64,000 bases of DNA. Source: an uncultured Candidatus Saccharibacteria bacterium (lineage in GTDB: Bacteria > Patescibacteriota > Dojkabacteria > SC72). Location: assembly GCA_964480345.1 (NCBI GenBank), contig CAYZNW010000001.1, positions 149,359 to 213,358 on the forward strand, given 5' to 3'. The position numbers and the translations under genes are program-made. Positions 8,836 through 55,644 of the stretch are shown in pieces (the first letter of the stretch is position 1; every line of letters begins with the position of its first letter). The notes under the pieces were generated by a model. That model was not told where the DNA came from. It worked only from the letters and a program-made list of their open reading frames with translations, and did not search any database.

Positions 8836-8856
8836 ATAATTTGTAAAACGAAAAAA

Positions 8857-9144
8857 ATGGAAACAATACCACCAGTATTCTGGATGATAGTCATAGCAAT
8901 ACTAACTGTAATGATATGCCTAGTCCTGTATTACCTAGCAATGCTACTAAAAGAAAGCAGAGATACTGTAGCTAAAACAGAACCAATAATTAAAGATCTA
9001 CAAACATCTGTATCATCTGTGACAGACACCTTAAATGAAGTAAACAACCTAGTAGTCAAACCAGTCAGAGGAATAGAAGCAGCCATATCCGTAGTAAATG
9101 GAATAATTACAGGAATAAAAGGTGACACAGAAGAAAAAAAATAA
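8857..9144 (+). CDS. small membrane protein, DUF948-like (N-terminal TM helix plus coiled coil)
   Basis: 95 aa; single N-terminal TM helix followed by helical segment resembling the DUF948 family. Confidence 0.5.
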   Translation: METIPPVFWMIVIAILTVMICLVLYYLAMLLKESRDTVAKTEPIIKDLQTSVSSVTDTLNEVNNLVVKPVRGIEAAISVVNGIITGIKGDTEEKK

Positions 9145-9194
9145 GAGTAGAACAATATTGTCACAAACTCCATTAAAAGGTATCATATTTCATA

Positions 9195-11093: not shown

Positions 11094-12541
11094 TACAAAA
11101 AAGAAACAACAAAAAAGGCTTGTACTTCTTAACTCTATTAGGAGTATTTGCTTTTTTTGCTGTAAAAATTTCAAACAAAATACATGTTGAATCTAAAGCT
11201 ACTGAGATTAAAGTGGTGTCTACAGAAGAGTGTACAAATTGTGGAGGAGTAGAATCCAAGGTGACAGAGGAAAAAATATTACCTGAAGAACAGAACAGTA
11301 TTAAAGTGACAGTATTACCAGCATCTGAAACCGTAGATATTACTGATTCGGTCTTAGGTGTGTTAGATGTTGTGAGAGGAAAGACAGCTTGGTCATGTGA
11401 AGATTATAATGTAGCAAATCATGTAGCTTCAGATACGATACTTTGTTCTAATGGTACTGGAAGTATAAATTATGAAGGAGGTTCAGCTGAGAATGATGAG
11501 ATTAGAGTTGCTAAAGATGCTGAGATACAGCTTACAGAAGTGACATACCCATTAGCATATTGGCTTGGGAAGTATACATATGATAATAGTACAAAAACTA
11601 TTACAACAAGAACCTCTGAGTATAGATCTAGTGGTGAGCAAATTAATGAAGCATATCAAAGTAGAGCTCTTGCTCCTCAAGAAGCAGAAACGTTTCGTAA
11701 AAACATAGATGGTACTGTAAGGCAAAAATTCACAGTAGAGGGAACTGTCTCTGCAGATCCTGAAATTACCGAGATACATGAGGCAGGTAAATATGTAGTT
11801 AGAAATGCTAGTCACGATCCTAAATGTAATTGTGTGGATAAAGTCGCAGTATCTGATTTTAATGTCGGTAAAAGTAACTATATATCATCAGACAAAGATG
11901 ATGGGTTATATATGCGTCAGCAGATTCCTGGAGGAGATAAATATGATGAGAGTCCTGTAGATGGTTGTATAAAAGAGGGAGAAGATTTTAAATCTATTGA
12001 TTATGGTCTAAAACATGCCTGTTGGGATATTGTTGCAAAAATTAAGGGGATATTTAAAAATCCTTTTAGCAGAGCCCAATGGAATGCATGTAATGGGATT
12101 AAATGTGATGAAAATGATGAAGATTGCGAAGAAGGAGAACGTACAGATAATTGTATTAAGCCAGAAGATATTGGTGTGACAATGTCTTCTATTTTCGGAG
12201 ATCCATATGAATGTGAGACAGAAGGATGTGCTACAGCAGCGATGACATATGTACATAAAGCTACCCTCTCTCCTGAACAAGCAAGTAACAAGAAAATAGT
12301 ATCTGGCGAATCAGAAGAAAGTCTGATGCATTTTGTAGCTACACCTTGTAGAGCAATGGTAGTGGAGACAAGATTAGAAATAGATGTAAAATGTATTTGG
12401 GATGACTCACCAACAATGTTAAATTATTTTTTAAATAAGACAGATAGTGCTCCTGGTCAGGATTTCCCTAAGAATTTTGATACATATTGGTCTTCAACAG
12501 AAGAAGATATAAAGAAATCAGCGGAATATTATAAATTATAG
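11090..12541 (+). CDS. Cys-rich extracytoplasmic protein with N-terminal membrane anchor; hypothetical
   Basis: 483 aa; ATGA overlap with upstream gene; one N-terminal TM helix; >20 Cys in the predicted exported part. Confidence 0.7.
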   Translation: MIQKRNNKKGLYFLTLLGVFAFFAVKISNKIHVESKATEIKVVSTEECTNCGGVESKVTEEKILPEEQNSIKVTVLPASETVDITDSVLGVLDVVRGKTAWSCEDYNVANHVASDTILCSNGTGSINYEGGSAENDEIRVAKDAEIQLTEVTYPLAYWLGKYTYDNSTKTITTRTSEYRSSGEQINEAYQSRALAPQEAETFRKNIDGTVRQKFTVEGTVSADPEITEIHEAGKYVVRNASHDPKCNCVDKVAVSDFNVGKSNYISSDKDDGLYMRQQIPGGDKYDESPVDGCIKEGEDFKSIDYGLKHACWDIVAKIKGIFKNPFSRAQWNACNGIKCDENDEDCEEGERTDNCIKPEDIGVTMSSIFGDPYECETEGCATAAMTYVHKATLSPEQASNKKIVSGESEESLMHFVATPCRAMVVETRLEIDVKCIWDDSPTMLNYFLNKTDSAPGQDFPKNFDTYWSSTEEDIKKSAEYYKL

Positions 12542-12571
12542 AAAAATATAAATTATTATAAATAACAATAG

Positions 12572-13921
12572 ATGATTAAACTAAGAAAATTTATTACAAT
12601 TTCTTTATTATCATTCCTCTTACTAGGATCAGTGGTAGGAACAGCTTATGCGCAAGAATCACCCAAATTAGATACTAGGACAGGTTGGCAGAAATTAATT
12701 GAAAAAGTAGGAAAATTTACAGATAGTATAGGTGAGAATATTTCTCAATTCATAGGTAAGCAGATATATGGTGCTTTAGAAACCACTACAATGGAGGTAT
12801 GTCCTACATGTACTGTTGGAGGTGAACGAGTAATGAATGATCCAAATATCCCAGAAAGTGCGAAAATGGGTTTGTTAGAAACAAGTGAAAAAGCGGTATA
12901 TACAATGTTTAATAGCTTTCCTGATGTGGATGTTACTGATCATTTAGCAAGCCAGTGGGTTCCAGGATATGCAGATTCAAGCAGTACATATGCAGGTGGA
13001 TATGAGGATTTACGAACATCTAAAGTAGATGTTTTGTGGACTGCTACTAGAGATATAGCATATATTGGGTTTGTGTTAGTGATGATAGTTATTGGTTTTA
13101 TGATTATGTTTAGACATAAGATAGGTGGACAAATGATGGTCACAGTAGGTAATGCAATTCCTAAAGTTATAGTTGCATTAGTACTTGTTACTTTCAGCTT
13201 CGCTATCATAGGTCTAATTATAGATCTAGGAGGTTTTATAATGAGACTTGTAGAGGTCTTGTTGTATGGCGATGCAGGTGAAGGAATAAATGTTACAAAT
13301 CCTAAACAAATGATGAGTGGCTTCTTCGACAAAAATGCTGTTTTCAAATTAGGTGGACCTAGTGAAAATGTTGGGACTCTCGTCTTCTCTATATTAGCAA
13401 TTTTTGGAATTGGTGGAGTTATTGTTGTAGGAATAACTAGCTTGTTATTAACTTTAATAATAATTGGAATTCTGTTTGTTGGTATGGTTAAACTTTGGCT
13501 AACTTTATTAAAAGCATATCTTGGAATTATTATAAATGTTATAGTTGCTCCATTAGCGATATTTGCAGGAGCATTGCCAGGGAATGAGGCATCTACTATA
13601 AATATATTTAAATCAACATTGAGAAATGTATTAGTCTTTCCAATAGCATATACTATTGTCAATCTTCCTTATTATGCTGATTTCAAAGGATTATCTTTGA
13701 TGTTTCCTGCAACATTGACAGGTGAGGGAGCTGCAAATTTAGAAGTGGGTAATTTTATACTAGCAGTTGTTAAAATAGTTGCGATATATGCTGCTTCAAG
13801 TGCTCCTGCAATAGCAGCAACCTTAATACCTCCTACAGCATCTAAACAAGCAGGAGATGCGGCAACTTCTATAAAAGCAAGCTTGTCTGGAGTACCATTT
13901 ATAGGTGGAATGTTTAAATAG
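12572..13921 (+). CDS. polytopic membrane protein with signal peptide (VirB6/TrbL-like topology); hypothetical
   Basis: 449 aa; cleavable-type signal peptide (AYA-Q), ~130-aa exported domain, then 6-7 TM helices. Confidence 0.7.
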   Translation: MIKLRKFITISLLSFLLLGSVVGTAYAQESPKLDTRTGWQKLIEKVGKFTDSIGENISQFIGKQIYGALETTTMEVCPTCTVGGERVMNDPNIPESAKMGLLETSEKAVYTMFNSFPDVDVTDHLASQWVPGYADSSSTYAGGYEDLRTSKVDVLWTATRDIAYIGFVLVMIVIGFMIMFRHKIGGQMMVTVGNAIPKVIVALVLVTFSFAIIGLIIDLGGFIMRLVEVLLYGDAGEGINVTNPKQMMSGFFDKNAVFKLGGPSENVGTLVFSILAIFGIGGVIVVGITSLLLTLIIIGILFVGMVKLWLTLLKAYLGIIINVIVAPLAIFAGALPGNEASTINIFKSTLRNVLVFPIAYTIVNLPYYADFKGLSLMFPATLTGEGAANLEVGNFILAVVKIVAIYAASSAPAIAATLIPPTASKQAGDAATSIKASLSGVPFIGGMFK

Positions 13922-13938
13922 TCTAATTATAAATATAT

Positions 13939-16473
13939 ATGGCCAAGGAGAAACCGAAACAGTATGAAGATGCTTTGGGATCCATATACGACTTTATTTT
14001 TGCAGAAACAAAGAAGTCGCCTGTAAAAGTCAAGCCAGTTAAAGTTACTGGTATAGATGGTACTTCTGAGTTCGCAGATGCTCTGATAGCTACTCTTGAA
14101 AACCCACTTCTCTTTGTTAACAAATCGACGATGAGTGCATTTGAGGAGGTGATTAATTATGATTTACTAAGTTTTAGATACGGTACTGGAGAGAGAGATA
14201 AAGTCAAATTTAATGTAAAAGATATACCAAAAGCATTAAAAGATCCTACTGGCTTTTTAGATAAAGCATTTGCAAAATATGATGCAAATAGAAAAGTAAA
14301 CAAAGCATTATGGGCAGGTGATGCTATTCAGGGAGCATTGGGAGGAATATGGGCTAGAAAGCATGGATTAGACAGAGAGACTGTCTTGGCTATGTCACAA
14401 GTGCATAGAAGCTCAGATAGATTCAAGCAAACAGCAAATTTTGATCCTACAAAAGTAGCTGGAGTTGGAGAAAGAACAGGGCAGTTAATAGATAAACATT
14501 TAGTTAGTCCTACAAGATCGTATACCTTAGTAGATTTCAAAGAGAGATATGGTTCTGATGTTGTAGCAAAAAGAAAATTTGAAGAGTATAAAAAGATGCT
14601 AGCTAAAGCGACGACAGAGAAGGGTAGAAGATCATTAATATACGATAAGAATGCTTATGTTTTTCTTGAAGGACAAGATATACGAGATAAAGCTGAAGCA
14701 GCAGAACAATCTGGGGATATTTTGAAAGCAGAGAATTATTATAGAGCAAGAAGACAATTAGACTCTTCGTTATCAAAGGAGCAGAGAGAAATAAACGAAA
14801 GAAAAAATGATTTAGAGATAGAGAAATATAAAACTGCGATAAGAGGTTTAAGAGCAAGTAGTGATCCTGATAAAGATGATAAAATAGCTGAGTTAGAGAG
14901 GGAAATAAAATCTATACGTTCTGATAGAAGATTATCAGCAGTTATGAGAGCATCTGCTTTTTGGGGAAAAGCTGATGGCTTTATTTCTTCTCTTAAAGCA
15001 ACAGCCAATATTAACCTTGGGGATGTCTTTATAACAGGAGCTTTCTTTGACCCATCTAATAAAAGTTGGGCTAACCCTCTAGATATAGCATCTAGAAAAA
15101 CATTAAGTGAAGCTGGTGTTAGGGGTTTTAGCAAAATTAATGTTAATGGATCTGATATCGGGTTTAAAATAGCAAAAACTTCTGGATCTAGATATTCGCA
15201 AGCATATAACGATGCTATGCTTAAGATATACTACAATACGCCAGTAGCCCGTATTAAATCCCTGTTTAATGGAGAGCTGTATGCATACAAGGTGTATGAG
15301 AATATGAATAAATTTCAAAACAAGTTTGGAAATAGTATCACTGGTTTTGATATGTCAAAGCTAATAAATGATAAAGGAGAAGTAGATGATATCTATCTCG
15401 ATAGTATAATTTCAGTTGTTCCGGCAGAACAGGTAGAGGCTATTACGAAATTTCTTAAAAAAGATGAAAGATTAAGAAAAATAGCATATCGATTTAATAC
15501 TGTAAAGCGTTGGCAGGATAAAGTTTCAGGATACTTTGACTCGAAAATAGGTAAAAAAGCTAGAGAGAAAATAGCTAATCTGCTTCTTCAAAGTGAAGCA
15601 TTTAAGAAGTTCTCATCTGTGTTGTTGAAAGAATGGGTAGAGAAAGGTGGAGTTCAGGTGTTAGGGAAGGCTATAGGAACAGCTCTTAGTGGAGTTCTTG
15701 GTCCTCTAGGTATGGTTGTTGGTGATGCTATTGCAAGTGCTGCTATGAAGTTAGCTCAAAAAATTGCAAAACCAGTAATAAAACTAGGAATCCAGGGATT
15801 GCTATATTCTATAATCGGACTGATTGGTATTTTAGTCTTGTTTTTTTCGGTTGTCTTTAGAAGTTCAGCCTTTCTTTCAGTAAACTCAAATGTCGCTCCT
15901 GTTGAAGTAGTAAAATGTAATGGATCTAATAATTTAGATGGTGAAAGTGAAGTTGAAGGGGGAGACTTCAATTTTGTAGACCTCGGTGCTGATGTTCCGA
16001 TTTTCTCTGGATCTGTTATGGAAATATACAATAAAATGGCGGCAAGTATGGGACTTGGAACGCAGTTAGAGCTTGTCTCATGTCCTGGACATCGTATGTG
16101 TTCTAGTATTGATTGGGCATGGTGTTATAGTGCTGATAAAATTTACTGTAGAGGTGATAAATTAAGTGGCCAATCTAACGCAACTCTCTCGAAACTATTT
16201 GCTCATGAACTTTTACATCAAGTACAAGGAAGAAATATGGGAGGAGCTCCATCTGTAGTACGTGAATGGGGAGCAGATTTACTAGCAGGCAATGGTGGAG
16301 GATACAAATTCAAAGTAAATGGACAGTGTGTAACTGCAACTTCAACAAAATCATACTTCCTCTCTAGAGGTTGTTCAGAGGGGCAGCTCTCTGATTTAGC
16401 TCGAAATGTTCCAGGTGCTATATCAAGTTCATGTGGAAGCATGGTTGCATCTTCTATCAATTTTTGTAGATAA
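13939..16473 (+). CDS. large membrane protein: cytoplasmic coiled-coil region, TM hairpin, extracellular Cys-rich domain with HExxH zincin-like motif; hypothetical
   Basis: 844 aa; no N-terminal signal; long coiled coil (aa ~200-330); TM helices near aa 560-640; C-terminal FAHELLHQVQGRN...E and 12 Cys. Confidence 0.7.
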   Translation: MAKEKPKQYEDALGSIYDFIFAETKKSPVKVKPVKVTGIDGTSEFADALIATLENPLLFVNKSTMSAFEEVINYDLLSFRYGTGERDKVKFNVKDIPKALKDPTGFLDKAFAKYDANRKVNKALWAGDAIQGALGGIWARKHGLDRETVLAMSQVHRSSDRFKQTANFDPTKVAGVGERTGQLIDKHLVSPTRSYTLVDFKERYGSDVVAKRKFEEYKKMLAKATTEKGRRSLIYDKNAYVFLEGQDIRDKAEAAEQSGDILKAENYYRARRQLDSSLSKEQREINERKNDLEIEKYKTAIRGLRASSDPDKDDKIAELEREIKSIRSDRRLSAVMRASAFWGKADGFISSLKATANINLGDVFITGAFFDPSNKSWANPLDIASRKTLSEAGVRGFSKINVNGSDIGFKIAKTSGSRYSQAYNDAMLKIYYNTPVARIKSLFNGELYAYKVYENMNKFQNKFGNSITGFDMSKLINDKGEVDDIYLDSIISVVPAEQVEAITKFLKKDERLRKIAYRFNTVKRWQDKVSGYFDSKIGKKAREKIANLLLQSEAFKKFSSVLLKEWVEKGGVQVLGKAIGTALSGVLGPLGMVVGDAIASAAMKLAQKIAKPVIKLGIQGLLYSIIGLIGILVLFFSVVFRSSAFLSVNSNVAPVEVVKCNGSNNLDGESEVEGGDFNFVDLGADVPIFSGSVMEIYNKMAASMGLGTQLELVSCPGHRMCSSIDWAWCYSADKIYCRGDKLSGQSNATLSKLFAHELLHQVQGRNMGGAPSVVREWGADLLAGNGGGYKFKVNGQCVTATSTKSYFLSRGCSEGQLSDLARNVPGAISSSCGSMVASSINFCR

Positions 16474-16485
16474 TGTAAATATAAT

Positions 16486-17493
16486 ATGAAGGACTTTTTT
16501 GTGAAATATAAATGGTTTATTCTAATAGGAATAATTCTAGGAATAATTTTTGTTGTAGTATTTATTCTTACTAAACAAGAGAAAGAGCAAACTACTCCTT
16601 CTGTAGCTAATAATAAAGTATTTGTTGAGCCATTTGCACTCCAGAGTACATACAGTATCAAAACAGTACCATCTACACAATCACTTTTTGAAAGTGAATA
16701 TATTCCTGTATATACAATTCGAGCAAGAAGCACATCAATTGAAGATTTAGTTGCGAAGTTAAATCGAAATCTTACAAAAATTGCTGAGTCACAATATGCG
16801 ATTAGTTGGAGTTTCGGTACAATTCTAGTTGGGTACAATTACGATATGGGTCTTTTAAGTCTAACTTCTCAGGAGAAAACAGATTTAGGAATCAAGATTG
16901 TAGACGAGAACGATGTCATAGATTTTTTTAAAAGTTATCTCGATTATCAAGTTGATGGAATTAGCAAATCAAAAGATTTTGATGGGGGTTATATATATAC
17001 AGGAAAGTATAATATTGGACAGTTTAAGTTTGGTTCTCTTGAAATAGATTCAAATGCGTATAAACTTCGTGTAGATAGCTCAAACAATCTATATCAATTC
17101 GATATTTTTCTTTATGATGCATCATCAGCTATCGAATACTCTACATATCTTCCAATAAATCCCACTAACCTTGTAAATGCAAAGAGAATCTTTGGAAAAT
17201 ATATTAGTATGCATGAGAGCTATTATGGAAAAAATCCAATACAGCAATCCTCTATAGAAATAATTCAAGATGATCCTAATCAGCTTATTTCTACACATCT
17301 ATTCAGAAATTTCTCATACGGATATATATACCCTGTGTATATAATTAATTCAGATGTCAGGTTAAAAGATTTTGTAGGAAATGAGTATCTAGCTACTATC
17401 AACTACTATATCTGTGCTGTCTCAGAAGAGTACTTAGAGAGAAGTGGAGTTGAAGATGAAGGTAATCTTCCTGTCCCGTATTTAGAACAGTAA
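16486..17493 (+). CDS. membrane-anchored hypothetical protein (single N-terminal TM)
   Basis: 335 aa; N-terminal TM helix, remainder predicted extracytoplasmic; no recognisable motif. Confidence 0.65.
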   Translation: MKDFFVKYKWFILIGIILGIIFVVVFILTKQEKEQTTPSVANNKVFVEPFALQSTYSIKTVPSTQSLFESEYIPVYTIRARSTSIEDLVAKLNRNLTKIAESQYAISWSFGTILVGYNYDMGLLSLTSQEKTDLGIKIVDENDVIDFFKSYLDYQVDGISKSKDFDGGYIYTGKYNIGQFKFGSLEIDSNAYKLRVDSSNNLYQFDIFLYDASSAIEYSTYLPINPTNLVNAKRIFGKYISMHESYYGKNPIQQSSIEIIQDDPNQLISTHLFRNFSYGYIYPVYIINSDVRLKDFVGNEYLATINYYICAVSEEYLERSGVEDEGNLPVPYLEQ

Positions 17494-17541
17494 GAATTTA
17501 AAAATATCCCAAATCATCTAAATAGATGATACAATAAAAGA

Positions 17542-18717
17542 ATGAAAAAATTTCTATTGCCGATTTTCTTAGTAATAGTTGTGTTGTTACTTCCATCTAT
17601 GGTAGATGCTTTCTCCTTCTACTCTGTATCCTCTCAGAAATTTGATACATCTCTGTTAGACAGCTCTAATCAAACCTACTCAGAGCCAAATAAAATCCTC
17701 ATAACACCCGTGAATACAGTATCCCAATCACTATCAAGAGATCCTGCAAAATGGGTCAAATTCCTCTACTACTACTCAATTACAAGATTACACTTAATGG
17801 ATTTACCGTACACCTACCTTTTAGATGAAAGCGGATTAATCTATCAAGGAAAAACTGGATATGTAGGAGCAAATACTGGAATAGAAAATGCTGATGGTGC
17901 AATCCTAATAGGATACCTATCTAACAACCCAATAATGACAGTAAGAGCTCAATCCTCATTAAAAGAAATCGTAGATGATATCTCTTCAAAATGGAGCATA
18001 TCACAAATAGAAGCAGTTACTTTAGATATTAAGAAAAACGACAACGAAATATCCGCACTCTCATATAAACCCGCTACAGGAGAGTTCTTACTGTCTGTCA
18101 AAGAACTCTTTGGGAATTGGAAAGAAAGTAAAGGAAGTAATCTAACACCTAAAGCGAAAATAGAGAATCTACAGTATGTTAAAGATGTCGAAGTATTAAA
18201 AAGAACAAAAGTATCATTTACCCTCAAAAACATGAACGATTTTGTATGGTTTACTGATAGAAATCCAATTTATGTTGCTACTGCAAATGGAAAAAACAGT
18301 GGATTCGCAATCAATCAAGTTTGGGAAAGCTTTTCCAGACCAGTAAGTATTTCAGATAAAGTGATTCTACCTGGTGAGAGCATAGAAGTCTCTTTTGAAA
18401 TGGAAGCTAAAGTCAAAGTAGGTGAAGTAAAAGAATCTTTTGTACTACTTAAATTCAATGATCAACCATTTGAAGATTCCACTTTTGATGTTGTTTTAAA
18501 TATTGTAAAAGGAAATAGCCAATTGGTAGAAGTAGTATCTCCACAATACGGATTTGTAAATATTAGAGAGTGTCAATGGTATAGTTGTAAAATTCTTGAT
18601 ACAGTTGATAGCGGTACCGTCTTTATACTGTTAGAAGAGAAAGATGCTTGGTCTAGAGTAAAATTTGGTCTTGAAGCAGAAGGCTGGGTAGCCTCAAGAT
18701 TTTTAAGAAAAATTTAA
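17542..18717 (+). CDS. secreted protein with amidase_2/PGRP-like segment and C-terminal SH3b domain (putative peptidoglycan hydrolase or binding protein)
   Basis: 391 aa; signal peptide; YTYLLDESGLIYQGKTGYVGANTG...ADGAILIGYL resembles amidase_2 core (catalytic His not obvious); C-terminal GFVNIREC...GTVFILLEEKDAWSRVKF..GWVASRFL matches bacterial SH3 pattern. Confidence 0.55.
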   Translation: MKKFLLPIFLVIVVLLLPSMVDAFSFYSVSSQKFDTSLLDSSNQTYSEPNKILITPVNTVSQSLSRDPAKWVKFLYYYSITRLHLMDLPYTYLLDESGLIYQGKTGYVGANTGIENADGAILIGYLSNNPIMTVRAQSSLKEIVDDISSKWSISQIEAVTLDIKKNDNEISALSYKPATGEFLLSVKELFGNWKESKGSNLTPKAKIENLQYVKDVEVLKRTKVSFTLKNMNDFVWFTDRNPIYVATANGKNSGFAINQVWESFSRPVSISDKVILPGESIEVSFEMEAKVKVGEVKESFVLLKFNDQPFEDSTFDVVLNIVKGNSQLVEVVSPQYGFVNIRECQWYSCKILDTVDSGTVFILLEEKDAWSRVKFGLEAEGWVASRFLRKI

Positions 18718-18728
18718 AGAATATTTCA

Positions 18729-20732
18729 ATGAACATAGAAAATATATTAAAGGGATTAAATCCCGGACAAAAGAAAGCTGTTCTCTGTACTGAAGGACCA
18801 CTTCTTGTTTTTGCTGGAGCAGGATCTGGCAAAACAAGAGTCATTACTAACCGAATAGCGTATCTGATTACTGCAAAAGGAGTTAGTCCCAGAAATATCA
18901 TGGCAGTCACATTTACCAAAAAAGCAGCAGGAGAGATGCAAGAAAGAGTCACTACCTTACTTAAAGATTTAAATTCAGAGAATAAAGGCTTTCCTACAAT
19001 TGGTACATTTCATTCAATAGGAGCAATGATATTAAGAAGTAATGCCAAAGAAGTGGGATTAACTAACAATTTCTCTATATATGACTCTGATGACAGCGAA
19101 AATGTCATAAAAGAACTCCTATTAGAAAGAGATATAGATATAAAACAAATAAAACCTCAATCTATAGCCTATTTCATAGGAGCTGCAAAAAATGACATGA
19201 TTACTCCTGAACAATTTGGACACCACTATTCAGGATATATTGAAGATATAGTGGCAGAAATATATCCACAATATCAAAAACAACTCTTAGCACAAAATTC
19301 TGTAGATTTTAGTGATCTACTTTACTTAACAGTAAAACTTTTAGAAGAAAATCAAAAAATCAGAGAGAAATACCAAGAACAGTATAAATATATCCTTATA
19401 GATGAATATCAGGATACCAATAACGCTCAATACCGATTTGCTAAAATTCTTTCAGATAAATATAAAAATATTTGTGTAGTAGGAGATGACGATCAAGGAA
19501 TATATGCATGGAGAGGTGCTGATATTAAAAACATACAATCATTTGAAGATGACTTTGAAAATGTCTCTGTTATCAAATTAGAACAGAATTACCGCTCAAC
19601 AAAAAATGTCATAGAGGCTGCTGTCAGTGTCATAAAACAGAATAATAGAAGAGTAGATAAAGTTTTGTGGACTGATAATAACGAAGGAGAGAAGATATCA
19701 ATTTATCAAGCTACTAATCAAGAAGATGAATCTTCATATGTTGTAGATAAGGTCAGAAGTCTAGCTCAACAAATGATTCCACTCAAAAACATAGCTGTTT
19801 TATATAGAACGAACTATCAATCTCGAGCAATAGAGGAGGCGTTGTTGAAAAGTGGGTTGCCTTATAAGCTTGTAGGAGGTTTTCGATTCTACGAGAGGAA
19901 AGAAATTAAAGATATCATAAGTTACTTAAGATTCTGTTTTAATTTAAAAGATGAATTAAGTCTAGATAGAATTATAAATGTACCTAGTAGAAAAATAGGA
20001 CCTAAAGCAGTTGCAGATATTCACGGTATGGCTAAAGAATGCAACTTAACTGTAGGAGAGTTTCTAGTAGGCGCATATATTGTATTAAATAAAGAGTTTA
20101 GTGAAGAGCTTCCGTTTTCTGCTAGTAAAGTTTCTGCAATAGAAAGTATTGAAGATAGTTGGAGTAAATATGTCTCTTTAATAAATCTCTTTGGTCATTT
20201 ATATTTTATGTCCCGAAAACAAACTTTGATTGAGATAATAGATAGTATTATCGAAAATACTAAATATATTAAATCTTTTGATGATGGAACTGAGCAGGCG
20301 CAGATGCAGAAAGAGAATATTCAGGAGTTAAAGAATGTTGCTTCTTCATACTCTTCGAAACATGGGCTAAAGAGCTTGGAGATTTTTCTCAATGAAGTAA
20401 ATTTGATAGAACAGGAGCAGGATAAAAATCAGGATGGTTCGAATAACTATCTTAATTTGATGACACTTCACTCCTCGAAGGGCTTAGAGTTTGATTATGT
20501 ATTTATAATAGGGATGGAAGAAGGGTTGCTTCCACACTCGCGTGCTTTTGTTGATGAAAATGAGTTAGAAGAAGAAAGAAGGCTCTGCTATGTAGGGATT
20601 ACACGAGCTAAACAGAAATTATTTATGACATTTGCGGAAAATAGATTAACAAGAGAGGGGTACACTTCTCAAATACCTTCTAGATTTCTAGGAGAAATTC
20701 CACAAGAGATTTGTGAGTATTACAGCTTCTAG
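18729..20732 (+). CDS. uvrD: ATP-dependent DNA helicase, UvrD/PcrA/Rep family
   Basis: 667 aa; Walker A GAGSGKT, helicase motifs (DEYQDTN, VGDDDQ, YRS), C-terminal VGITRAK. Confidence 0.85.
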   Translation: MNIENILKGLNPGQKKAVLCTEGPLLVFAGAGSGKTRVITNRIAYLITAKGVSPRNIMAVTFTKKAAGEMQERVTTLLKDLNSENKGFPTIGTFHSIGAMILRSNAKEVGLTNNFSIYDSDDSENVIKELLLERDIDIKQIKPQSIAYFIGAAKNDMITPEQFGHHYSGYIEDIVAEIYPQYQKQLLAQNSVDFSDLLYLTVKLLEENQKIREKYQEQYKYILIDEYQDTNNAQYRFAKILSDKYKNICVVGDDDQGIYAWRGADIKNIQSFEDDFENVSVIKLEQNYRSTKNVIEAAVSVIKQNNRRVDKVLWTDNNEGEKISIYQATNQEDESSYVVDKVRSLAQQMIPLKNIAVLYRTNYQSRAIEEALLKSGLPYKLVGGFRFYERKEIKDIISYLRFCFNLKDELSLDRIINVPSRKIGPKAVADIHGMAKECNLTVGEFLVGAYIVLNKEFSEELPFSASKVSAIESIEDSWSKYVSLINLFGHLYFMSRKQTLIEIIDSIIENTKYIKSFDDGTEQAQMQKENIQELKNVASSYSSKHGLKSLEIFLNEVNLIEQEQDKNQDGSNNYLNLMTLHSSKGLEFDYVFIIGMEEGLLPHSRAFVDENELEEERRLCYVGITRAKQKLFMTFAENRLTREGYTSQIPSRFLGEIPQEICEYYSF

Positions 20733-20738
20733 TTGTTA

Positions 20739-23700
20739 TTATTTCTTACTCTGTAGTTTCTTTTTTGCTAGTACTGATACAAGTATACTTCCAACACTAT
20801 ACACAATTGGCCAAGACCAATATATTTGGCAATCTCCTTTTGTAAATAGATACCATGCACCACATGAGATTATGACGAAGAGTACAGTTATCAAATTATT
20901 TTGTGTGAGTAATATTATTATGAGTAATAATACTGCAATAATCGTTGGAGCTATAATAGAAGGTTTTTTGCAGGCTTCTGTAGTCTCATCACTCCTGTTG
21001 TTGTCTTCTCTTACTGTATCCGTAAGCTGTTTGTTTTCTGGCTTTATATCTTCCTTCTCTGCAGTTTCGCTTTTATCTTGCTCTTGTGGCTTTGGTGGAG
21101 CCATCAAAGTAAGTTCGTTTGTAGTTATATCTGTAATAACTGAGCCATCTCTAGATATTATCTCTACTTTTACATCATAAACTCCAAGTATCAATCCATT
21201 TTCTAAATTGGTGAGATCTAATTTCCATATATCTCCATCTGTTGTTAATTCTGGATTAATACCAAGAGTGTATTTTACATCATTTGTTAGAATAGAAAGT
21301 TGTAGAGAGTTCTTCGAATCGTATGTCCCTGTAATTACAGGTTTGTTTCCTATGAATTTTAATGTGTCTACAGTTGGAATATTAGCATCAGGTCTAAGGA
21401 TAGACAGTTCATTACTAGTAGGATCGTTTGTATAATTTCCTGCAGGATCGGTAAAAGAAACTATGACATCATAAATACTTGGTTTCAAATTTATGAGAGA
21501 ACCTTTTGCTAAAGTCCAAGTCTGATCTTTATTGTTTATCGCATTATATTTAACTCCATTTACTAAAACACTTATTTCCGCTGTTATATCATCCACAGTC
21601 CCACTTAACTCAGGGGAGGTATCTATACCATCTGGGATTGGATTAAGAGTACCTGTAGGGCTAATAGTGTCGATAGTTATTACTTTTTCTATTGCAGTAG
21701 TGGTTGTATTTCCTGCCAAATCAGAAGCAGTAACAGAGAAAGTATACTCATCATCTATAAGGGGTGGAGTAATGATTCCTGCTTGAAGAATCCAGGTACC
21801 ATTTCCATTATTCTTAGCTGAATATGTATTACCATTGATTGATACTTGTATGGTGGCCGTTTTATCATCAATAACTCCTTCTATTACAGGAGAAGAAGTA
21901 TTTCCATATTGCGTTGTGATGTCTATAACAGGAGGAGTTATGTCATAGGTTACTGTATTATCAGTACTACTACTTTTCTCATTTCCATTTCCTGCATTTC
22001 CAAAGATCTTGTTTTCTTCAATTTCAACTTTTGCGATGTCTCCATCAGTCATGTATGTAACTTCTATTTCATATGTAAGATTATCTATTTTAGTTAATCT
22101 TGTTACAGCCCCAGTTGTCCCAGAAAGGGTAATATCACTAGCATCAAATGTACTTTCATTAATAGGTTTAGAAAATATGATAGTAAATAGGGCAGAATTG
22201 ATATTTGTTGGGTCATTCTGCTCAGCTTTTTGATTAATAGTAACAGTTGGCTTGATAGTATCAATTTCTATTTCATTTGTAGTAGTATCGTATCCATTAT
22301 TGAGAGCTAAATCGGTAGCTTTTACAATAGCATCGTATTTGCCATCTATTAGTTTACTAATGGTGGAATGTGGAAGAATCCAAGTATCGTCACCATTGTT
22401 TGTTGCTGAGTACTCAATACCATTTATTGTAACTTTTATCGTTGCGTATTCATCATTTACTGTTCCTGTTAATTGCGGGGAGGTATTATTTGTAATTAAA
22501 TTATCTACTGTTACAGTAGGTGGCGTTATATCGTATGTTACATAAGCATTGCTTTCTGTACTTTCCTGATTTAAGTTACCATATATATTTTCTACTTTTC
22601 CAGCTGGTAACTCTGCTGTAATAGTATCTCCATCTGTCATTCCGTTTACTGTAACTTGCCATGTATCTTGCTTTAATTGTATGAAATTAGTAACCGATGC
22701 AGTTGTGCTTCCGATAATAGCAATATCATCTGAAGTAAAGGTTGAAGGAATAACATTTTGGCAAGAGAATGTAAATATGAAAATAACTTGATTGGTATTT
22801 GTTGGATTTGGTTGTGTATCTGGAATTGTGACTTCTACAGTAAGTAGAGTATCATCTATGATTAATTCTCCTGTCGATGTATCACTACCAACATTTCCAG
22901 CTTTATCAGTTGCAGAAGCTGATATGTCGTATGTTCCATTAGGAATATGGTCAGGAATGGTTAAACTCCATCGTCCAATAGCAGAGTGGTTAGCTGTATA
23001 TGTATTACTATTAACAGTTACTTTAATAATTGTATCGTCATCATCTATACTACCTCCAACAGTAGGTGTGTGTTTATTTGTTATGGTATTTGCTACGGTT
23101 ATTGTAGGAGCAACATTATCAATGGTTAATTCGTTATTTGAGGTATCTTGTCCGGTATTACCTACAGTATCTGTTGCTTTTGCAATTATATTATATGTAC
23201 CATCTGAGAGAGTGTTTATTATAGAAGCAGGTAGAGACCAAGTTCCATTAGTATTGTTAGTTGCGCTATATTCTATCCCTTCTACAGTAATCTTAATTAT
23301 TGCTGAGTTGTCATCTATAGTTCCAGTCAGTTCAGGAGATCTATTTTGAGTAAATAGTGTATTTATAGTAATGACTGGAGGAGTAGCGTCGTATGTAACT
23401 GTGTTATCGGTACTTGTGCTTGCAGTATTACTGTTCCCAGCTAAGTCAGTGAATTTCCCTGCTGATATACTTAAGGAAATAGTACTGACACTGTTCATAC
23501 CTGCAATTGTTACACTCCATTCAGTTGCACTTTCTCTTTGGAACCCTGTTATTGTTCCAGGACCACCAGCTATTGAGATAATTGATGGTGTAAATGACAC
23601 TTCATTTATTGGTTCAGAAAGTATAACAGTAAATTTAGCAGAGTTAATATTTGTAGGATCAGGCTGACCGACCATTTGATTTACTGTTACAGTTGGTTTT

Positions 23701-25889
23701 GTAATATCGTAAGTTACTTTATTATCTGTACTTGTACTAGCAGTATTACTATTGCCAGCAAGATCATTAATAACTCCAGATGGTATAGTAGCTACTACAG
23801 TATCTCCATCAGTCATACCAGTAACAGTAATATTCCAAGTAGTATTATTTGTCCCTACCTTAGAAAAACCAGTTACTGTTCCAGTAGTTCCTTCTAAAGT
23901 AATATCTGATGCAGAGAAAGTAGATTCGTTTATAGACTCAGAGAATACTACAGTAAATTGAATAGAGTTAATATTTGTAGGATCAGCCTGCCCAACTTTT
24001 TGATTAATAGTTACTGTTGGTTGAACAGTATCTATTGTTAGTTCATTTGTCGAAGAGTCTGTTCCGATATTTGTAGCAGTATCTGTTGCAGTAGCGGAGA
24101 TGTTGTATGTCCCATTTGATAATGCAACAACAGTTTGTACGGACCAAGTACCATCTCCTTCGTTTACACCATTATATTGAAGGCCATTTACTGTGATTTT
24201 AATAGTTGCTAAAGAATCATCGATATTTCCTGTTAGAAGAGGAGAAGTAACATTTGTTGTTAATGGATTAATTGTAATTATTGGTGGTGTATGGTCCCAA
24301 GTTATACTGTTATCTGTACTTGTGCTTGCTAGATTTGTATTTCCTGCTAGATCTTCAACTTTGTCTTCAAGCAGGGAGAGTTTTAATGTCATATCAGTTG
24401 TCATGCCAGTAACAGTCGCTGTCCATTGTGTAGATGTATTTTGTGCTAAGTTTGTAACTTGAGCCGTTCCTGCAATAAGGCTTAAATCGTCAGTCGTAAA
24501 TGTTGAGGCATTAATAGGTTCTGAAAAAACAATAGTAAAAAGAAGATTTAATCCATTTGTTGGATCTGCTTGTCCTGAAGCTTGATTGACTGTAACAGTT
24601 GGTCTAGTTATATCATATGTGATTTGATTATCTGTACTTGTACTTGCAGTGTTGTTATTTCCAGCGAGATCAGTAATTTTTGATGATGCAAGTGAAAGAG
24701 TAGTTGTTGTATTGGTGGCCATTCCACTTAGTTCTGCACTCCATGTTGTATCGTCAACTTTTGTAAGGTTTGAAACAGTTGCAGTGCTTCCTGAAATAGT
24801 GAAATCTGATGGTTGCAGTGTGGTTTCATTTATTTTTTCACTAAATACAATAGTATATGTCATAGGTGAAGTGTTTGAAGGATCTTTTTGAGTAGTAGCT
24901 TGGTTAATTGTAAGGGTCGGAGAAGTAGTATCTATCGTTAATTCGTTTACAGTATTATCGGATGAACTATTCATAGCTGGATCTGTCACTGTCGCCTCTA
25001 TATTGTATACACCCTCTGCAAGTTGAGTAGGAATAGTAAATGTCCAGGTGTCGTTGGTATTGTTAGTTGCAATATAGCTAACACTATTTACAATCAGACG
25101 GATAGTAGCAGTACTATCATCAGTTGTTCCTGTAATAGTAGGTGTTGTATCATTTGTAATTATTGGGTTGATGGTTACTGTAGGGATTGTGATATCGTAA
25201 GTTATCTGATTATCTGTACTTGTACTTGCTAGATTTGTATTGCCAATCAAATCTTCTATAACATCGGCTGGGATAGTTGCACTTACTGTCTCTCCATCAC
25301 TCATACCAGTAACCGTGATATTCCAAGTTGTATTCTCTGCCCCTACCTTAGTAAAATCAGTAATAGTTCCAGTATTACCAGATATGAGAATATCAGATAA
25401 GGTAAAAGTGAGTTCATTGATAGGTTTTGAAAATATTACAGTGAATTGAGCAGAGTTAACATTAGTCGGATCAGCTTGTCCAGCTTTCTGATTGATTGTT
25501 ATTGACGGTTTCGTACTATCAATAGTTAGTTCATTTATAGAATTATCATTAGAGGTGCCGTCAACAGGATCTATTGCAGTAGCGACAATATCATAAACGC
25601 CATCGTTTAGTGCTGAAGTTATCTCTGCAGACCAAGTTCCATTTTGATTATTTATTGCAGAGTAACTGTTCTCGGATATTGTAATAGAAATAGTACTTGT
25701 TGTTGTACTTATTGTTCCTGTGATTGTAGGGGTAGAATCATTTGTGATTAGTGTGTTAATAGTAATGACAGGAGGAGCTGCTTTTGTCACAAACTTCCTA
25801 GCGAAAATGAAAAGACTTAACAAGACAAACGGAAATATTAGTATTAATAGGACTTTCTTGGAATTACTCTTCTTCATTCCTGTGGGCAA
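20739..25889 (-). CDS. giant surface adhesin-like protein with ~8 tandem units of two alternating bacterial Ig-like domain types and C-terminal TM anchors
   Basis: 1716 aa; N-terminal signal/anchor; repeats of ...TNDTTPTITGT.DD..ATI...VNG..Y.ATNN.NGTW... alternating with ...PTVTINQK.GQ.DPTN.NS..FTV.FSE.INE.TF..SDI...GTTGTVT...TVTGMTDG...DLAGN.N.ASTSTDN.VTYDIT; Glu/Lys-rich stalk and 2-3 TM helices at C-terminus. Confidence 0.85.
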   Translation of the reverse strand: MPTGMKKSNSKKVLLILIFPFVLLSLFIFARKFVTKAAPPVITINTLITNDSTPTITGTISTTTSTISITISENSYSAINNQNGTWSAEITSALNDGVYDIVATAIDPVDGTSNDNSINELTIDSTKPSITINQKAGQADPTNVNSAQFTVIFSKPINELTFTLSDILISGNTGTITDFTKVGAENTTWNITVTGMSDGETVSATIPADVIEDLIGNTNLASTSTDNQITYDITIPTVTINPIITNDTTPTITGTTDDSTATIRLIVNSVSYIATNNTNDTWTFTIPTQLAEGVYNIEATVTDPAMNSSSDNTVNELTIDTTSPTLTINQATTQKDPSNTSPMTYTIVFSEKINETTLQPSDFTISGSTATVSNLTKVDDTTWSAELSGMATNTTTTLSLASSKITDLAGNNNTASTSTDNQITYDITRPTVTVNQASGQADPTNGLNLLFTIVFSEPINASTFTTDDLSLIAGTAQVTNLAQNTSTQWTATVTGMTTDMTLKLSLLEDKVEDLAGNTNLASTSTDNSITWDHTPPIITINPLTTNVTSPLLTGNIDDSLATIKITVNGLQYNGVNEGDGTWSVQTVVALSNGTYNISATATDTATNIGTDSSTNELTIDTVQPTVTINQKVGQADPTNINSIQFTVVFSESINESTFSASDITLEGTTGTVTGFSKVGTNNTTWNITVTGMTDGDTVVATIPSGVINDLAGNSNTASTSTDNKVTYDITKPTVTVNQMVGQPDPTNINSAKFTVILSEPINEVSFTPSIISIAGGPGTITGFQRESATEWSVTIAGMNSVSTISLSISAGKFTDLAGNSNTASTSTDNTVTYDATPPVITINTLFTQNRSPELTGTIDDNSAIIKITVEGIEYSATNNTNGTWSLPASIINTLSDGTYNIIAKATDTVGNTGQDTSNNELTIDNVAPTITVANTITNKHTPTVGGSIDDDDTIIKVTVNSNTYTANHSAIGRWSLTIPDHIPNGTYDISASATDKAGNVGSDTSTGELIIDDTLLTVEVTIPDTQPNPTNTNQVIFIFTFSCQNVIPSTFTSDDIAIIGSTTASVTNFIQLKQDTWQVTVNGMTDGDTITAELPAGKVENIYGNLNQESTESNAYVTYDITPPTVTVDNLITNNTSPQLTGTVNDEYATIKVTINGIEYSATNNGDDTWILPHSTISKLIDGKYDAIVKATDLALNNGYDTTTNEIEIDTIKPTVTINQKAEQNDPTNINSALFTIIFSKPINESTFDASDITLSGTTGAVTRLTKIDNLTYEIEVTYMTDGDIAKVEIEENKIFGNAGNGNEKSSSTDNTVTYDITPPVIDITTQYGNTSSPVIEGVIDDKTATIQVSINGNTYSAKNNGNGTWILQAGIITPPLIDDEYTFSVTASDLAGNTTTTAIEKVITIDTISPTGTLNPIPDGIDTSPELSGTVDDITAEISVLVNGVKYNAINNKDQTWTLAKGSLINLKPSIYDVIVSFTDPAGNYTNDPTSNELSILRPDANIPTVDTLKFIGNKPVITGTYDSKNSLQLSILTNDVKYTLGINPELTTDGDIWKLDLTNLENGLILGVYDVKVEIISRDGSVITDITTNELTLMAPPKPQEQDKSETAEKEDIKPENKQLTDTVREDNNRSDETTEACKKPSIIAPTIIAVLLLIIILLTQNNLITVLFVIISCGAWYLFTKGDCQIYWSWPIVYSVGSILVSVLAKKKLQSKK
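21390..25770. repeat. coding tandem repeats (~570-nt unit, ~8 copies, diverged) encoding alternating Ig-like domains
   Basis: periodicity read from the protein translation; the + strand of this region is full of short spurious ORFs. Confidence 0.6.
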
Positions 25890-26241
25890 TTATTTGATTA
25901 GTACTTTCTCTGTAAATAAAGCGTGTTTCGTTTCTAGGGAAAATAATTATTAAATCACCATTTTCTGCAGCTTTGAGAAACTCATCATTCTCATTTTTTG
26001 TTTTGTCTACAACAGTTGCAATTACAGGAGTTTCATCTGTAGGCATTTCTATTAGCTTTGAAGCTTTCTCTACAATATCTTTATCTCTTTGTGATAACCC
26101 AGCAGTTACCACAGTAGGGTTTGAAACCTCCTGATTGTCACGCTTCTTTTGTTTACGATTTATGAAAATAAGTATAAAGACCAAACAGATCACAATAGAT
26201 ATTATCAATATATATCTAATTATTTTTTTGCTTGATTTCAT
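25864..26241 (-). CDS. small membrane protein, hypothetical (N-terminal TM)
   Basis: 125 aa; immediately upstream of and overlapping (26 nt) the giant adhesin gene on the same strand. Confidence 0.5.
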   Translation of the reverse strand: MKSSKKIIRYILIISIVICLVFILIFINRKQKKRDNQEVSNPTVVTAGLSQRDKDIVEKASKLIEMPTDETPVIATVVDKTKNENDEFLKAAENGDLIIIFPRNETRFIYRESTNQIIAHRNEEE

Positions 26242-26310
26242 ATAATCATTATAAGTAAGTAAAGAGATAAAGTAAACAATAGGGATAAAGAAAAATTGTG
26301 AAATAAATGG

Positions 26311-27231
26311 TTATTGTAACCAACTTAATTCGCCATAGGTTGCTACATATTTTTTATACACTGCCGGCCACATATTTTTTGGATTTGCTCCAGCCCTAAC
26401 CTTATCTATAGTTCTTTGAATTTGCTTCCCTCCATCAAAAATATTGTCATTTGGGTATTGTGTGTACCAAAGACATGGGTCCCATTGGAAAAGACCTTTG
26501 TAATATGCTTTATTATTCTCAGCATTACATCCAGATTCCCATCTCATGGTAAATTTTAGCCACTGCTTCTCTTCCTCTGATGCTGAAATATTATCAATAT
26601 ATGCTTCCCAAAAAGCACAGTTGTATCCTCTTTGAGGAACGGAATCTGGAGTGTCATCAGGTCCTTTAATTATTATAATCTGAGGTCTAGGATCGCGAAG
26701 TGTAGTCTCTTCTACTATCTCTTCAGCAATTAGCTCCTCTCCTTTGTATGTTCTCTTGATTTTTTGTGACATTAAACCGAGAACACCAGCTTGTGCGACC
26801 TCTTGTCTTTGTAATTTTGAACATAGCACTGAACCTTGAACTTCTGAAGTAAATGGGATTTCTAATGTAAGCTCATCAATAGTAGAGGTATATGATTGTA
26901 CATTAATAAAGGTATTGTTATATAAAGAATTGATAGGAGAAGTAGAGATCAGCAAATTCCTATTGCTTAAAGGATAATCCAGGTCTAACAATGCAATAAC
27001 AGGAGATGGCTTGTTGGTAAGGAAAGTATCTACTTCACCATCATAGTTGATTGTTACCAACCTGAGACGAGGAGAACTCTTAATTTCCTCAGCTTTTACT
27101 TTATACAAATTTTCTAAAAGCGAATAATAGTTGCTATCAGTATCTAAATGCTTAATTACAGCGTAACCTGAAAGTCCTAGTCCCAGAGCGAAAGCAGCTA
27201 CTACTAATAAAAAAAACAAAAACTTCTTCAT
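26311..27231 (-). CDS. secreted protein with C-terminal Rpf/transglycosylase-like domain (putative cell-wall muralytic enzyme)
   Basis: 306 aa; signal peptide; C-terminal WESGCNAENNKAYYKGLFQWDPCLW resembles the resuscitation-promoting-factor transglycosylase-like motif (ESG...GLxQ...W). Confidence 0.5.
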   Translation of the reverse strand: MKKFLFFLLVVAAFALGLGLSGYAVIKHLDTDSNYYSLLENLYKVKAEEIKSSPRLRLVTINYDGEVDTFLTNKPSPVIALLDLDYPLSNRNLLISTSPINSLYNNTFINVQSYTSTIDELTLEIPFTSEVQGSVLCSKLQRQEVAQAGVLGLMSQKIKRTYKGEELIAEEIVEETTLRDPRPQIIIIKGPDDTPDSVPQRGYNCAFWEAYIDNISASEEEKQWLKFTMRWESGCNAENNKAYYKGLFQWDPCLWYTQYPNDNIFDGGKQIQRTIDKVRAGANPKNMWPAVYKKYVATYGELSWLQ

Positions 27232-55515: not shown

Positions 55516-55575
55516 ATTTCTTTGTAGACAAAGAAATTGCAAAGAGAAGGACTCAAAAGGGTCCTTCTCTGTTTT
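55516..55575 (+). terminator. tandem hairpins after hup (ATTTCTTTG-taga-CAAAGAAAT and AGAGAAGGAC-tcaaaagg-GTCCTTCTCT + T-run)
   Basis: two perfect 9-10 bp stems read directly; the second is followed by TGTTTT. Confidence 0.55.
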
Positions 55576-55644
55576 AATATAGACGCTTACTTCACAACAT
55601 CATCTTGCGTAGAAGCTCTTGATGACATAAACTATAGTATTGCT

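Follow-up and report, generated by a model that had tools for sequence, protein, structure and literature searches.

An Ig-repeat rod gene with a clade-specific C-terminal tail and an overlapping partner gene in a Dojkabacteria genome

RESULTS

A long Ig-repeat gene lies convergent to uvrD

We analyzed a stretch of 64,000 nucleotides (nt), here called the window, from contig CAYZNW010000001.1 (assembly GCA_964480345.1) of an uncultured bacterium placed among the Dojkabacteria. Its EF-Tu falls into a 90%-identity cluster, and the members of that cluster with names are metagenome-assembled genomes of Candidatus Dojkabacteria. On its minus strand lies a gene for a long protein of immunoglobulin (Ig)-like domains, referred to below as the rod gene, whose start is overlapped by a small gene referred to as the partner gene (Table 1). 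The rod gene is a single open reading frame (ORF), as had been predicted earlier from the sequence alone. That prediction counted 1716 amino acids (aa) from a TTG codon. An ATG lies 12 nt downstream, at 25877, and gives a product of 1712 aa that begins MKKSNSKK. All orthologues start with an equivalent Met-Lys/Gln-rich n-region, and because their N-termini match there, the ATG is the likelier start.

The ORF is a real gene under purifying selection. Its G+C content is ∼34–35%, the same as in the rest of the window. Comparison with the syntenic orthologue in locus L001 showed differences of 15.4, 10.1 and 38.9% at codon positions 1, 2 and 3, respectively (1092 aligned codons), and the ratio of nonsynonymous to synonymous substitution rates (dN/dS) is 0.05–0.25 in every domain and in the tail. 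The product is strongly acidic (190 D+E versus 78 K+R). On the other side lies uvrD, convergent to the rod gene; in the junction sequence, exactly 6 nt separate the two stops, as predicted. Their counterparts in L001 overlap by 4 nt. A terminator scan found none between the convergent stops. We also considered a hypervariable target of a diversity-generating retroelement and ruled it out, given that the protein has no C-type-lectin-like end and that dN/dS is uniformly low.

Table 1. Features at the rod locus (positions in the window; aa, residues of the rod protein)
Feature	Position	Strand	Basis or remark
uvrD helicase gene	18729..20732	+	Pfam UvrD-helicase (E 4e-93) and UvrD_C
Fifteen antisense ORFs, 69–185 aa, not genes	20713..25953	+	ORF listing
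Ig-repeat rod gene	20739..25889	-	Single ORF, 1716 aa when counted from TTG
Stop codon of rod gene	20739–20741	-	
Predicted three-helix membrane tail	20742..20969	-	Helices ∼aa 1642–1657, 1661–1679 and 1688–1711; alignments, hydropathy, AF2
Acidic stalk, aa 1594–1636	20970..21098	-	Composition; conserved Cys at end
Conserved ten-domain core B4-B5-A4-A5-B6-A6-B7-A7-A8-A9	21099..24023	-	
A9	21099–21380	-	
A8	21381–21662	-	
A7	21663–21935	-	
Logan contig meeting point at B7–A7 boundary	21931..21962	.	Ends of L008, L009 and L010; 30–32 nt overlap
B7	21936–22253	-	
A6	22254–22523	-	
B6	22524–22847	-	
A5	22848–23111	-	
A4	23112–23381	-	
B5	23382–23699	-	
B4	23700–24023	-	
Expansion zone B1-A2-B2-B3-A3	24024..25511	-	Extra relative to the 11-domain orthologue; without one-to-one orthologues
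A3	24024–24287	-	
B3	24288–24605	-	
B2	24606–24923	-	
A2	24924–25187	-	
B1	25188–25511	-	
A1 (Big_13/Ca_tandemer type), putative distal tip	25512..25775	-	First domain, 66–70% identical in L001/L004; orthologous in all relatives
Putative Sec-type signal peptide or signal anchor, aa 1–34, MKKSNSKKVLLILIFPFVLLSLFIFARKFVTKAA	25776..25877	-	Hydropathy and orthologue layout
Partner gene, 125-aa protein	25864..26241	-	Last 14 nt overlap the rod gene start
306-aa gene, weak Pfam G5 match	26311..27231	-	23.3 bits (cutoff 23); upstream of partner gene

Two types of Ig-like domain tile the rod protein

From the N-terminus, the rod protein consists of a 34-aa hydrophobic segment, 16 Ig-like domains, a 44-aa acidic stalk and a 76-aa hydrophobic tail. 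The domains are of two types, one Big_13/Ca_tandemer-like (A, 88–94 aa) and one Big_12-like (B, 106–108 aa). Their borders were set by manual segmentation and checked by hidden Markov models (HMMs) built from those segments. The domains tile aa 35–1593 without gaps, in the order A-B-A-B-B-A-B-B-A-A-B-A-B-A-A-A (nine A and seven B). The original prediction had described about eight tandem two-domain units; its two types and the total of 16 domains stand, whereas strict A-B pairing does not hold.

Searches with Ig-like domain HMMs, which had been proposed as a check, gave scores well above every cutoff. Eight stretches of the protein were matched by Pfam Big_13 (PF19077, 228.8 bits versus a cutoff of 27) and likewise by NCBIfam Ca_tandemer (NF033510, 210.1 versus 50), and seven by Pfam Big_12 (PF19078, 104.1 versus 27). 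The rod protein is a member of the Big_13/Ca_tandemer and Big_12 repeat families. The ninth A copy, A9, was picked up by our self-built HMM only; AlphaFold2 (AF2) modeled it as all-beta, with a predicted local distance difference test score (pLDDT) of 80–90.

Consistent with the adhesin-like character assigned earlier by likeness to Bap/RTX-family proteins, the A domains match PDB sequences of SiiE BIg50-52 (2yn3, E 5e-11), the RII region of MpAFP (4p99) and an RTX adhesin (5irb), and a D-x-A-G-N motif and a conserved Trp align between them. In SiiE, these positions link the Ca2+ sites by which the rod is held straight (PMC6272769). Domains A1–A8 of the rod protein retain the D-x-x-G/x-N motif and the Trp, together with the acidic positions (TND.TP, DD, NELTID); in A9 they are degenerate.

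A three-helix tail stands where relatives carry a sorting signal

At the N-terminus, the Kyte–Doolittle (KD) hydrophobic window spans aa 4–31, with an h-region of ∼20 residues (KD 2.7). Orthologues share the same n/h/c layout, ending in ..V[TS][KR]AAPP. An N-terminal anchor had been proposed for this segment. It is indeed hydrophobic, yet its conserved V-[TS]-[KR]-A|A site makes it look more like a cleavable Sec signal.

At the other end, the stalk (13 D+E and 8 K+R in 44 residues) is only 29–41% identical between orthologues and disordered according to AF2 (pLDDT <50). The tail behind it carries the conserved motif IS[CI]xAWYLxTKxxCxIxWxWPIxY, which covers helices 2 and 3 and the intervening loop, and has a basic end, KKKLQSKK. 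All three helices are given by hydropathy and by AF2 alike. Hence the charged stalk and C-terminal transmembrane (TM) helices of the earlier description agree with composition, hydropathy and modeling.

We found no L[PA]xTG motif in the rod protein by regular-expression search, no match to TIGR01167 in its last 140 aa, and no match to any NCBIfam sorting-signal model. Lacking the tripartite C-terminal signal, the protein is, as judged from its sequence, not a sortase substrate. Five relatives from the Candidate Phyla Radiation (CPR) differ in this respect (L015–L018 and L020; G+C 47–52%). In all five, the C-terminus consists of LAxTG followed by a hydrophobic stretch and then a basic tail. Four of them are matched by TIGR01167 (cutoff 15.9 bits): L015 scored 16.4 bits, and the other three fell just under the cutoff at 13.5–15.7; L018 showed no match. 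The LAxTG relatives share an A9-like last domain with the rod protein and are 39–47% identical to it over A7–A9. Because these relatives with a matching last domain end in LAxTG, the three-helix tail sits at the position of the sortase signal.

A profile of the tail found one 50%-identity cluster among 1.84 billion representatives and one JGI metagenome locus; both tail-profile searches returned the P0004 lineage only. With the 77-aa tail as the sole query, a word-indexed homology search returned no scored matches, missing even the known orthologues. When a tail HMM was run over six frames of the window and of the fetched loci, no second protein with the tail appeared, so in this region of the genome it does not act as a general sorting signal. 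As far as these searches reach, the three-helix tail is clade-specific.

Separately, we noted that the distant homologues P0002, P0007, P0090, P0103 and P0118 combine Big_12 arrays and a Sortase domain (PF04203) in one predicted protein.

The partner gene overlaps the rod gene at four loci

The partner protein combines a single TM helix with a small, conserved alpha/beta domain of ∼70 aa (AF2 pLDDT 85.6). Homologues that are 58–74% identical occupy the same position in L001, L004 and L011 and overlap the rod gene by 14 or 11 nt, such that the overlap of 11–14 nt is present at all four orthologous loci. The surroundings of the pair represent three different neighborhoods: uvrD and the G5 gene in L001, epimerases and L10 in L004, and glutamyl-tRNA synthetase in L011. 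The partner family has 29 members at E ≤ 1e-3, one of them from a Berkelbacteria genome, and in 7 of the 9 contexts examined a gene of >1000 aa is directly adjacent on the same strand. On these sequence comparisons, a functional link between partner and rod protein is plausible. Pfam DUF6568 scored 23.7 bits on the partner, under its cutoff of 27.1, and covered mainly the TM region. No partner was detected beside the LAxTG relatives (L015–L018, L020), and a scan of genome contigs with the partner alignment gave no confirmed relative.

Three observations concern the wider partner family. In L012 (1543–7926), L091 (1–4443) and L092 (1–3294), a family member lies directly downstream of a giant secreted protein of another type. 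These giants range from at least 1097 to 2127 aa, are rich in Thr, Gly and Ser, and have no Pfam matches and no TM or LPXTG anchor; their C-termini are alike (..F.TPY/H...PxVNA......GFT/FTV..........F.W.A..). Seven members (P0146, P0149, P0150, P0152, P0153, P0160 and P0161) have an extra C-terminal domain of ∼70 aa with the pattern ..V.V.NG......A..LA..LGG.VG.LP.GE..P..A.IVV.., which we take to resemble a LytR_C-type envelope domain. One JGI record labels a family member ‘cytoskeletal protein RodZ’.

The repeats are old and vary in number between relatives

The original prediction viewed the gene as a series of DNA-level tandem repeats of ∼570 nt that could serve as substrates for recombination and assembly collapse. 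Repeat spacings of 582–591 nt (A+B), 318–324 nt and 858–906 nt were indeed found, the A+B unit being 196 aa or 588 nt, but the repeats are far from identical. Domain pairs are 24–70% identical in protein and 59–78% in DNA. The closest pair, B1/B4 (70% in protein, 78% in DNA), is non-adjacent, and adjacent pairs of the same type are 33–56% identical. The longest exact repeat is 23 nt, versus a mean of 13.5 and a maximum of 17 in codon shuffles. Tandem Repeats Finder (TRF), run on 20000–26500, found nothing, its period limit of 500 nt making it blind to the 588-nt unit. Repeats so diverged make present-day recombination or collapse unlikely. They are old, and their divergence is the normal regime of multidomain proteins.

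Variation in repeat number between related genomes, also anticipated, was confirmed. Orthologues have 11 domains (P0004/L004), 13 (L001), 16 (window) and 30 (L011/L014), in a comparison of proteins 58% (P0004/L004) to 78% (L001, over the core) identical to that of the window, that is, at species level or beyond. The L011/L014 gene encodes 3222 aa up to a contig end that cuts it just at the start of the tail (contig CAZCCQ010000003.1 for L014, last residues ...DCELSPI). All four orthologues have A1 and a collinear core, B-B-A-A-B-A-B-A-A-A, and every difference lies between these. In L001, L004 and L014, the core is collinear with that of the window and nearly gap-free across 1092 codons, with dN/dS values of 0.05–0.19. 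Its first B domain has been duplicated independently, with the copies 70% (window), 81% (L001) and 90% (L014) identical in protein; in L014, where the duplicate is recent, an exact repeat extends over 127 nt and one domain pair has 89% DNA identity. The family thus behaves like a slowly evolving periscope, with the window copy in a diverged, stable state. The L014 protein also has a 174-aa insert at aa 1329–1502 (nt ∼5891–6412; PPNTPFITVKIWDTF...), neither A nor B, which interrupts an A-B-B series.

The assembly of the gene was compared with Logan contigs, independent short-read assemblies of two runs from the same organism. L008, L009 (13.2 kb) and L010 (9.2 kb) are 100% identical to the window, and they meet at the B7–A7 boundary (Table 1). 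The 32-mer at the meeting point is unique in the window, and no repeat of ≥31 nt exists in the rod gene. In each of L001, L004 and L014, a single contig spans the B7–A7 junction, and the orthologue is collinear there. With identical contigs on both sides, a unique 32-mer and collinear orthologues, collapse or chimerism is very unlikely, contrary to the earlier concern; the break in the Logan contigs could come from a co-occurring structural variant or a drop in coverage.

Repeated architecture yields a series of false antisense ORFs

The plus-strand ORFs that accompany the rod gene had been called spurious, and our data agree. Eleven of the 14 inside the gene fall in one antisense frame. This frame contains 31 stops, versus 43 ± 4.6 in codon shuffles, and the stops recur at equivalent domain positions: the Gln of ..INQ.. 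(B 8), the Tyr of ..VTYD.. (B 100–105) and a Tyr at A 37–38. Open antisense stretches of ≥70 codons number 13, versus 7.2 ± 1.6 in shuffles, and only 1 of 1000 shuffles reached 13. Antisense stops are mostly non-conserved between orthologues, the 185-aa ORF being broken by four stops in L004, and substitutions concentrate at third positions of the minus-strand frame. The antisense ORFs are by-products of composition and repeated architecture.

Neighboring genes

The 306-aa gene upstream of the partner gene is present in the syntenic L001 and absent in L004; it may be in the same transcription unit as the partner and rod genes. Between it and the partner gene, a promoter-like site (26276–26248) matches the consensus only; the promoter scan performed no better than on shuffles. 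Beyond uvrD, seven consecutive genes share the plus strand (5182–18717; 1217, 632, 483, 449, 844, 335 and 391 aa). Pfam found fn3/Pur_ac_phosph_N domains in the first two, SH3_3 in the last and otherwise almost nothing; counterparts of the last four occur in L001, whose sequence stops inside the fourth. Together, these genes may form a further cluster for surface or envelope proteins. Further candidates for secreted or envelope proteins in the window are a 505-aa protein with a CAP (cysteine-rich secretory protein) domain (55537–57054) and a 307-aa DUF4349 protein (47913–48836). In L004, a 1686-aa RCC1/WD40-like repeat protein (7412–12472) lies near the 11-domain orthologue and adjoins the L10/L12 ribosomal genes.

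DISCUSSION

A candidate membrane-anchored rod

CPR bacteria, or Patescibacteria, presumably live attached to other cells, by means of which very little is known. We consider it likely that the locus encodes a Sec-exported, membrane-anchored Ig rod of Dojkabacteria, probably stiffened by Ca2+, with a role in adhesion or spacing. The N-terminal signal would direct export and would probably be cleaved. Outside the cell, the 16 Ig-like domains would fold as an extended array. Domains in SiiE and MpIBP measure ∼3.5–5 nm each, which would give a rod of ∼55–80 nm. Of the nine A domains, A1–A8 keep SiiE-type Ca2+ positions, with A9 degenerate, and since the D-x-x-G-N motif, the Trp and the acidic positions are retained, the rod is probably rigidified by Ca2+. 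At the C-terminus, the polytopic three-helix tail with its basic, presumably cytoplasmic end, preceded by the flexible acidic stalk, would provide a hold in the cytoplasmic membrane, and such a hold would make the conserved A1 the distal tip. The position of the tail suggests that this lineage swapped covalent wall anchoring for membrane anchoring. The small single-pass partner appears to be translationally coupled to the rod gene and probably works in export or anchoring. Over evolution, B(-B) and A-B-B modules may have been duplicated or lost in a single zone behind the tip, tuning how far the rod reaches. Most likely, the rod serves to adhere to a host cell or a surface, or to set the spacing towards it.

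Several observations weigh against this view. The rod protein showed no ligand-binding, lectin or enzymatic domain, so ‘adhesin’ is used here by analogy only. The predicted Ca2+ binding is read from motif conservation. Membrane topology is likewise a prediction, and AF2 assigned the TM helices a pLDDT of only 52–66 from a 3-sequence alignment. For the partner model, no fold match was found in the PDB. Two of the nine partner-family contexts, both of distant homologues, have no adjacent giant gene, and the pairing could therefore be lineage-specific synteny. Finally, in the L001 orthologue an in-frame TAG (7980–7982) replaces a conserved TGG, the Trp of ..NTTWNITVTG.. in B1 (window ∼25320). It splits the gene into products of 184 and 1240 aa, the remaining 1240 codons being open, and the same split is found in contigs of at least three samples (SRR35948887, SRR35948651 and SRR35948677). 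The rod protein may thus be dispensable; the TAG may reflect inactivation in recent times, or else an ‘off’ allele at the population level.

Alternative explanations

The absence of a recognizable ligand-binding head, with all 16 domains generic Ig-like, is also what a structural, S-layer-like envelope spacer with no specific ligand would show. Such a protein would fit the uniform purifying selection, which leaves no fast-evolving tip, and the envelope-type neighbors with G5, SH3, YkuD and fn3 domains. Yet the rod appears to be a single-copy, membrane-tethered monomer in which no self-assembly or SLH-type domain was detected, and the closest characterized relatives of its A domains are adhesins (SiiE, MpIBP and RTX adhesins). 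Moreover, SiiE binds glycans through BIg domains without a separate head (PMC6272769). We regard the spacer as unlikely, though the most serious of the alternatives discussed here. Less credible still is that the N-terminal segment stays in the membrane as an uncleaved signal anchor, tethering the protein at both ends as a loop on the membrane. Its h-region is long and strongly hydrophobic (∼20 residues, KD 2.7), and the original prediction named it an anchor. Against this, all orthologues have V-[TS]-[KR]-A|A after the h-region while the remaining segment is 41–44% identical, and a stiff 16-domain rod fixed at both ends would probably be sterically awkward.

Two further explanations turn on the repeats. 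In a Periscope-type contingency gene, near-identical repeats recombine often, counts vary by strain and short-read assemblies collapse. The orthologue counts of 11, 13, 16 and 30, the 127-nt exact repeat and 89% DNA pair of L014, the 81% protein identity of the L001 B pair and the break of two Logan assemblies at a domain boundary are all in line with this, and Big_13 itself was defined in the Periscope-protein study (PMC8201768). However, the screen in that study demanded tandem repeats of ≥80% identity (PMC8201768). No pair in the window exceeds 70% in protein or 78% in DNA, adjacent same-type pairs reach 33–56%, no exact repeat is longer than 23 nt, and TRF, within its 500-nt period limit, found nothing. 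The contigs flanking the break are also 100% identical to the window, with orthologues collinear across it. A contingency gene of this kind is accordingly improbable here. That the gene is an assembly artefact, in which fragments with repeats were joined into a chimera or collapsed, is harder still to believe. Independent short-read contigs do end at 21931–21962 with ∼31 nt of overlap, but identity is complete over 13.2 and 9.2 kb, the 32-mer at the junction occurs only once in the window, and gene order and the B7–A7 junction are collinear within single contigs of L001, L004 and L014. In addition, the 1712-aa frame is intact and under purifying selection throughout.

Returning to the membrane-anchored rod, we can extend it tentatively. 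The rod and partner genes could form a two-gene CPR surface-display module not described before, in which the partner family goes with giant secreted proteins and, in one Dojkabacteria clade, is translationally coupled to an Ig rod whose sortase signal gave way to the three-helix tail. The partner helix and the tail would make up a dedicated four-helix anchor or export complex, and recurrent duplication at one hot spot behind the tip would tune the length of the rod. We rate this extension as doubtful.

Significance

As a candidate surface tether of a CPR bacterium, the locus is concrete and clearly delimited. Within one family, it allows a natural comparison between covalent wall anchoring in the LAxTG relatives and membrane anchoring in the rod clade. 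The small conserved partner is a possible accessory factor for giant surface proteins. For annotation, the lessons are that repeated domain architecture yields a regular series of false antisense ORFs and that repetitiveness at the protein level need not imply an unstable or mis-assembled gene. New here are the tail in place of LAxTG, its rarity (a single cluster), and the partner overlap at four loci. Otherwise, the rod protein is one among thousands of Ig-repeat surface proteins.

Comparison with known systems

A literature search on adhesins and sortase of Dojkabacteria and CPR found nothing specific to the rod family. The rod protein resembles SiiE, MpIBP/MpAFP RII and LapA/Bap-like adhesins in its long array of bacterial Ig-like domains, which would form an extended rod and, as motifs suggest, bind Ca2+; it shares with SiiE the lack of a separate ligand-binding head. 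Unlike adhesins of the type I secretion system (T1SS)/RTX class, it has a Sec-type N-terminal signal and no C-terminal T1SS signal, interleaves a second domain type (Big_12), has its own C-terminal TM helices and belongs to a CPR host. HemolysinCabind (PF00353) gave no match at E ≤ 1 in the protein, and no ATP-binding cassette, membrane fusion protein or TolC-like genes were found among the 27 neighboring ORFs scanned, a set that leaves out the ribosomal-protein block at 32–48 kb. With neither RTX repeats or signal nor transporter genes, the rod protein is, by these sequence features, not a T1SS/RTX adhesin.

It shares its domain repertoire, an N-terminal signal and a C-terminal anchor with the LAxTG/LPXTG Ig-repeat proteins of CPR metagenome-assembled genomes and Gram-positive bacteria, and differs from the LAxTG proteins of CPR in ending in an acidic stalk and three-helix tail and in having a partner gene. 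Periscope Proteins such as SasG, Rib and Sgo_0707 are defined by tandem repeats of >50 aa with ≥80% identity and vary from strain to strain through intragenic recombination (Whelan et al. 2021, PMC8201768). They too are tandem-domain rods whose N-terminal end is projected from a C-terminal anchor and whose domain counts differ between genomes. In the rod protein, by contrast, the domains are 24–70% identical and of two interleaved types, and the variation seen is that between species-level relatives, the ones compared here. By the 80% criterion, it is not a Periscope Protein.

Bap of Acinetobacter, as far as its published description goes, is a polymorphic giant surface protein with arrays of 80–110-aa Ig-like modules of several types (PMC4647330). 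By that description, rather than by sequence, it is similar to the rod protein in its module arrays; it is a Gram-negative protein, unlike the CPR rod. The secretion route of Bap is T1SS, and its repeats resemble one another far more than the rod-protein domains do. The rod protein is best described as a largely ordinary variant of the Ig-repeat surface adhesin class, distinguished by a clade-specific polytopic tail and a coupled partner.

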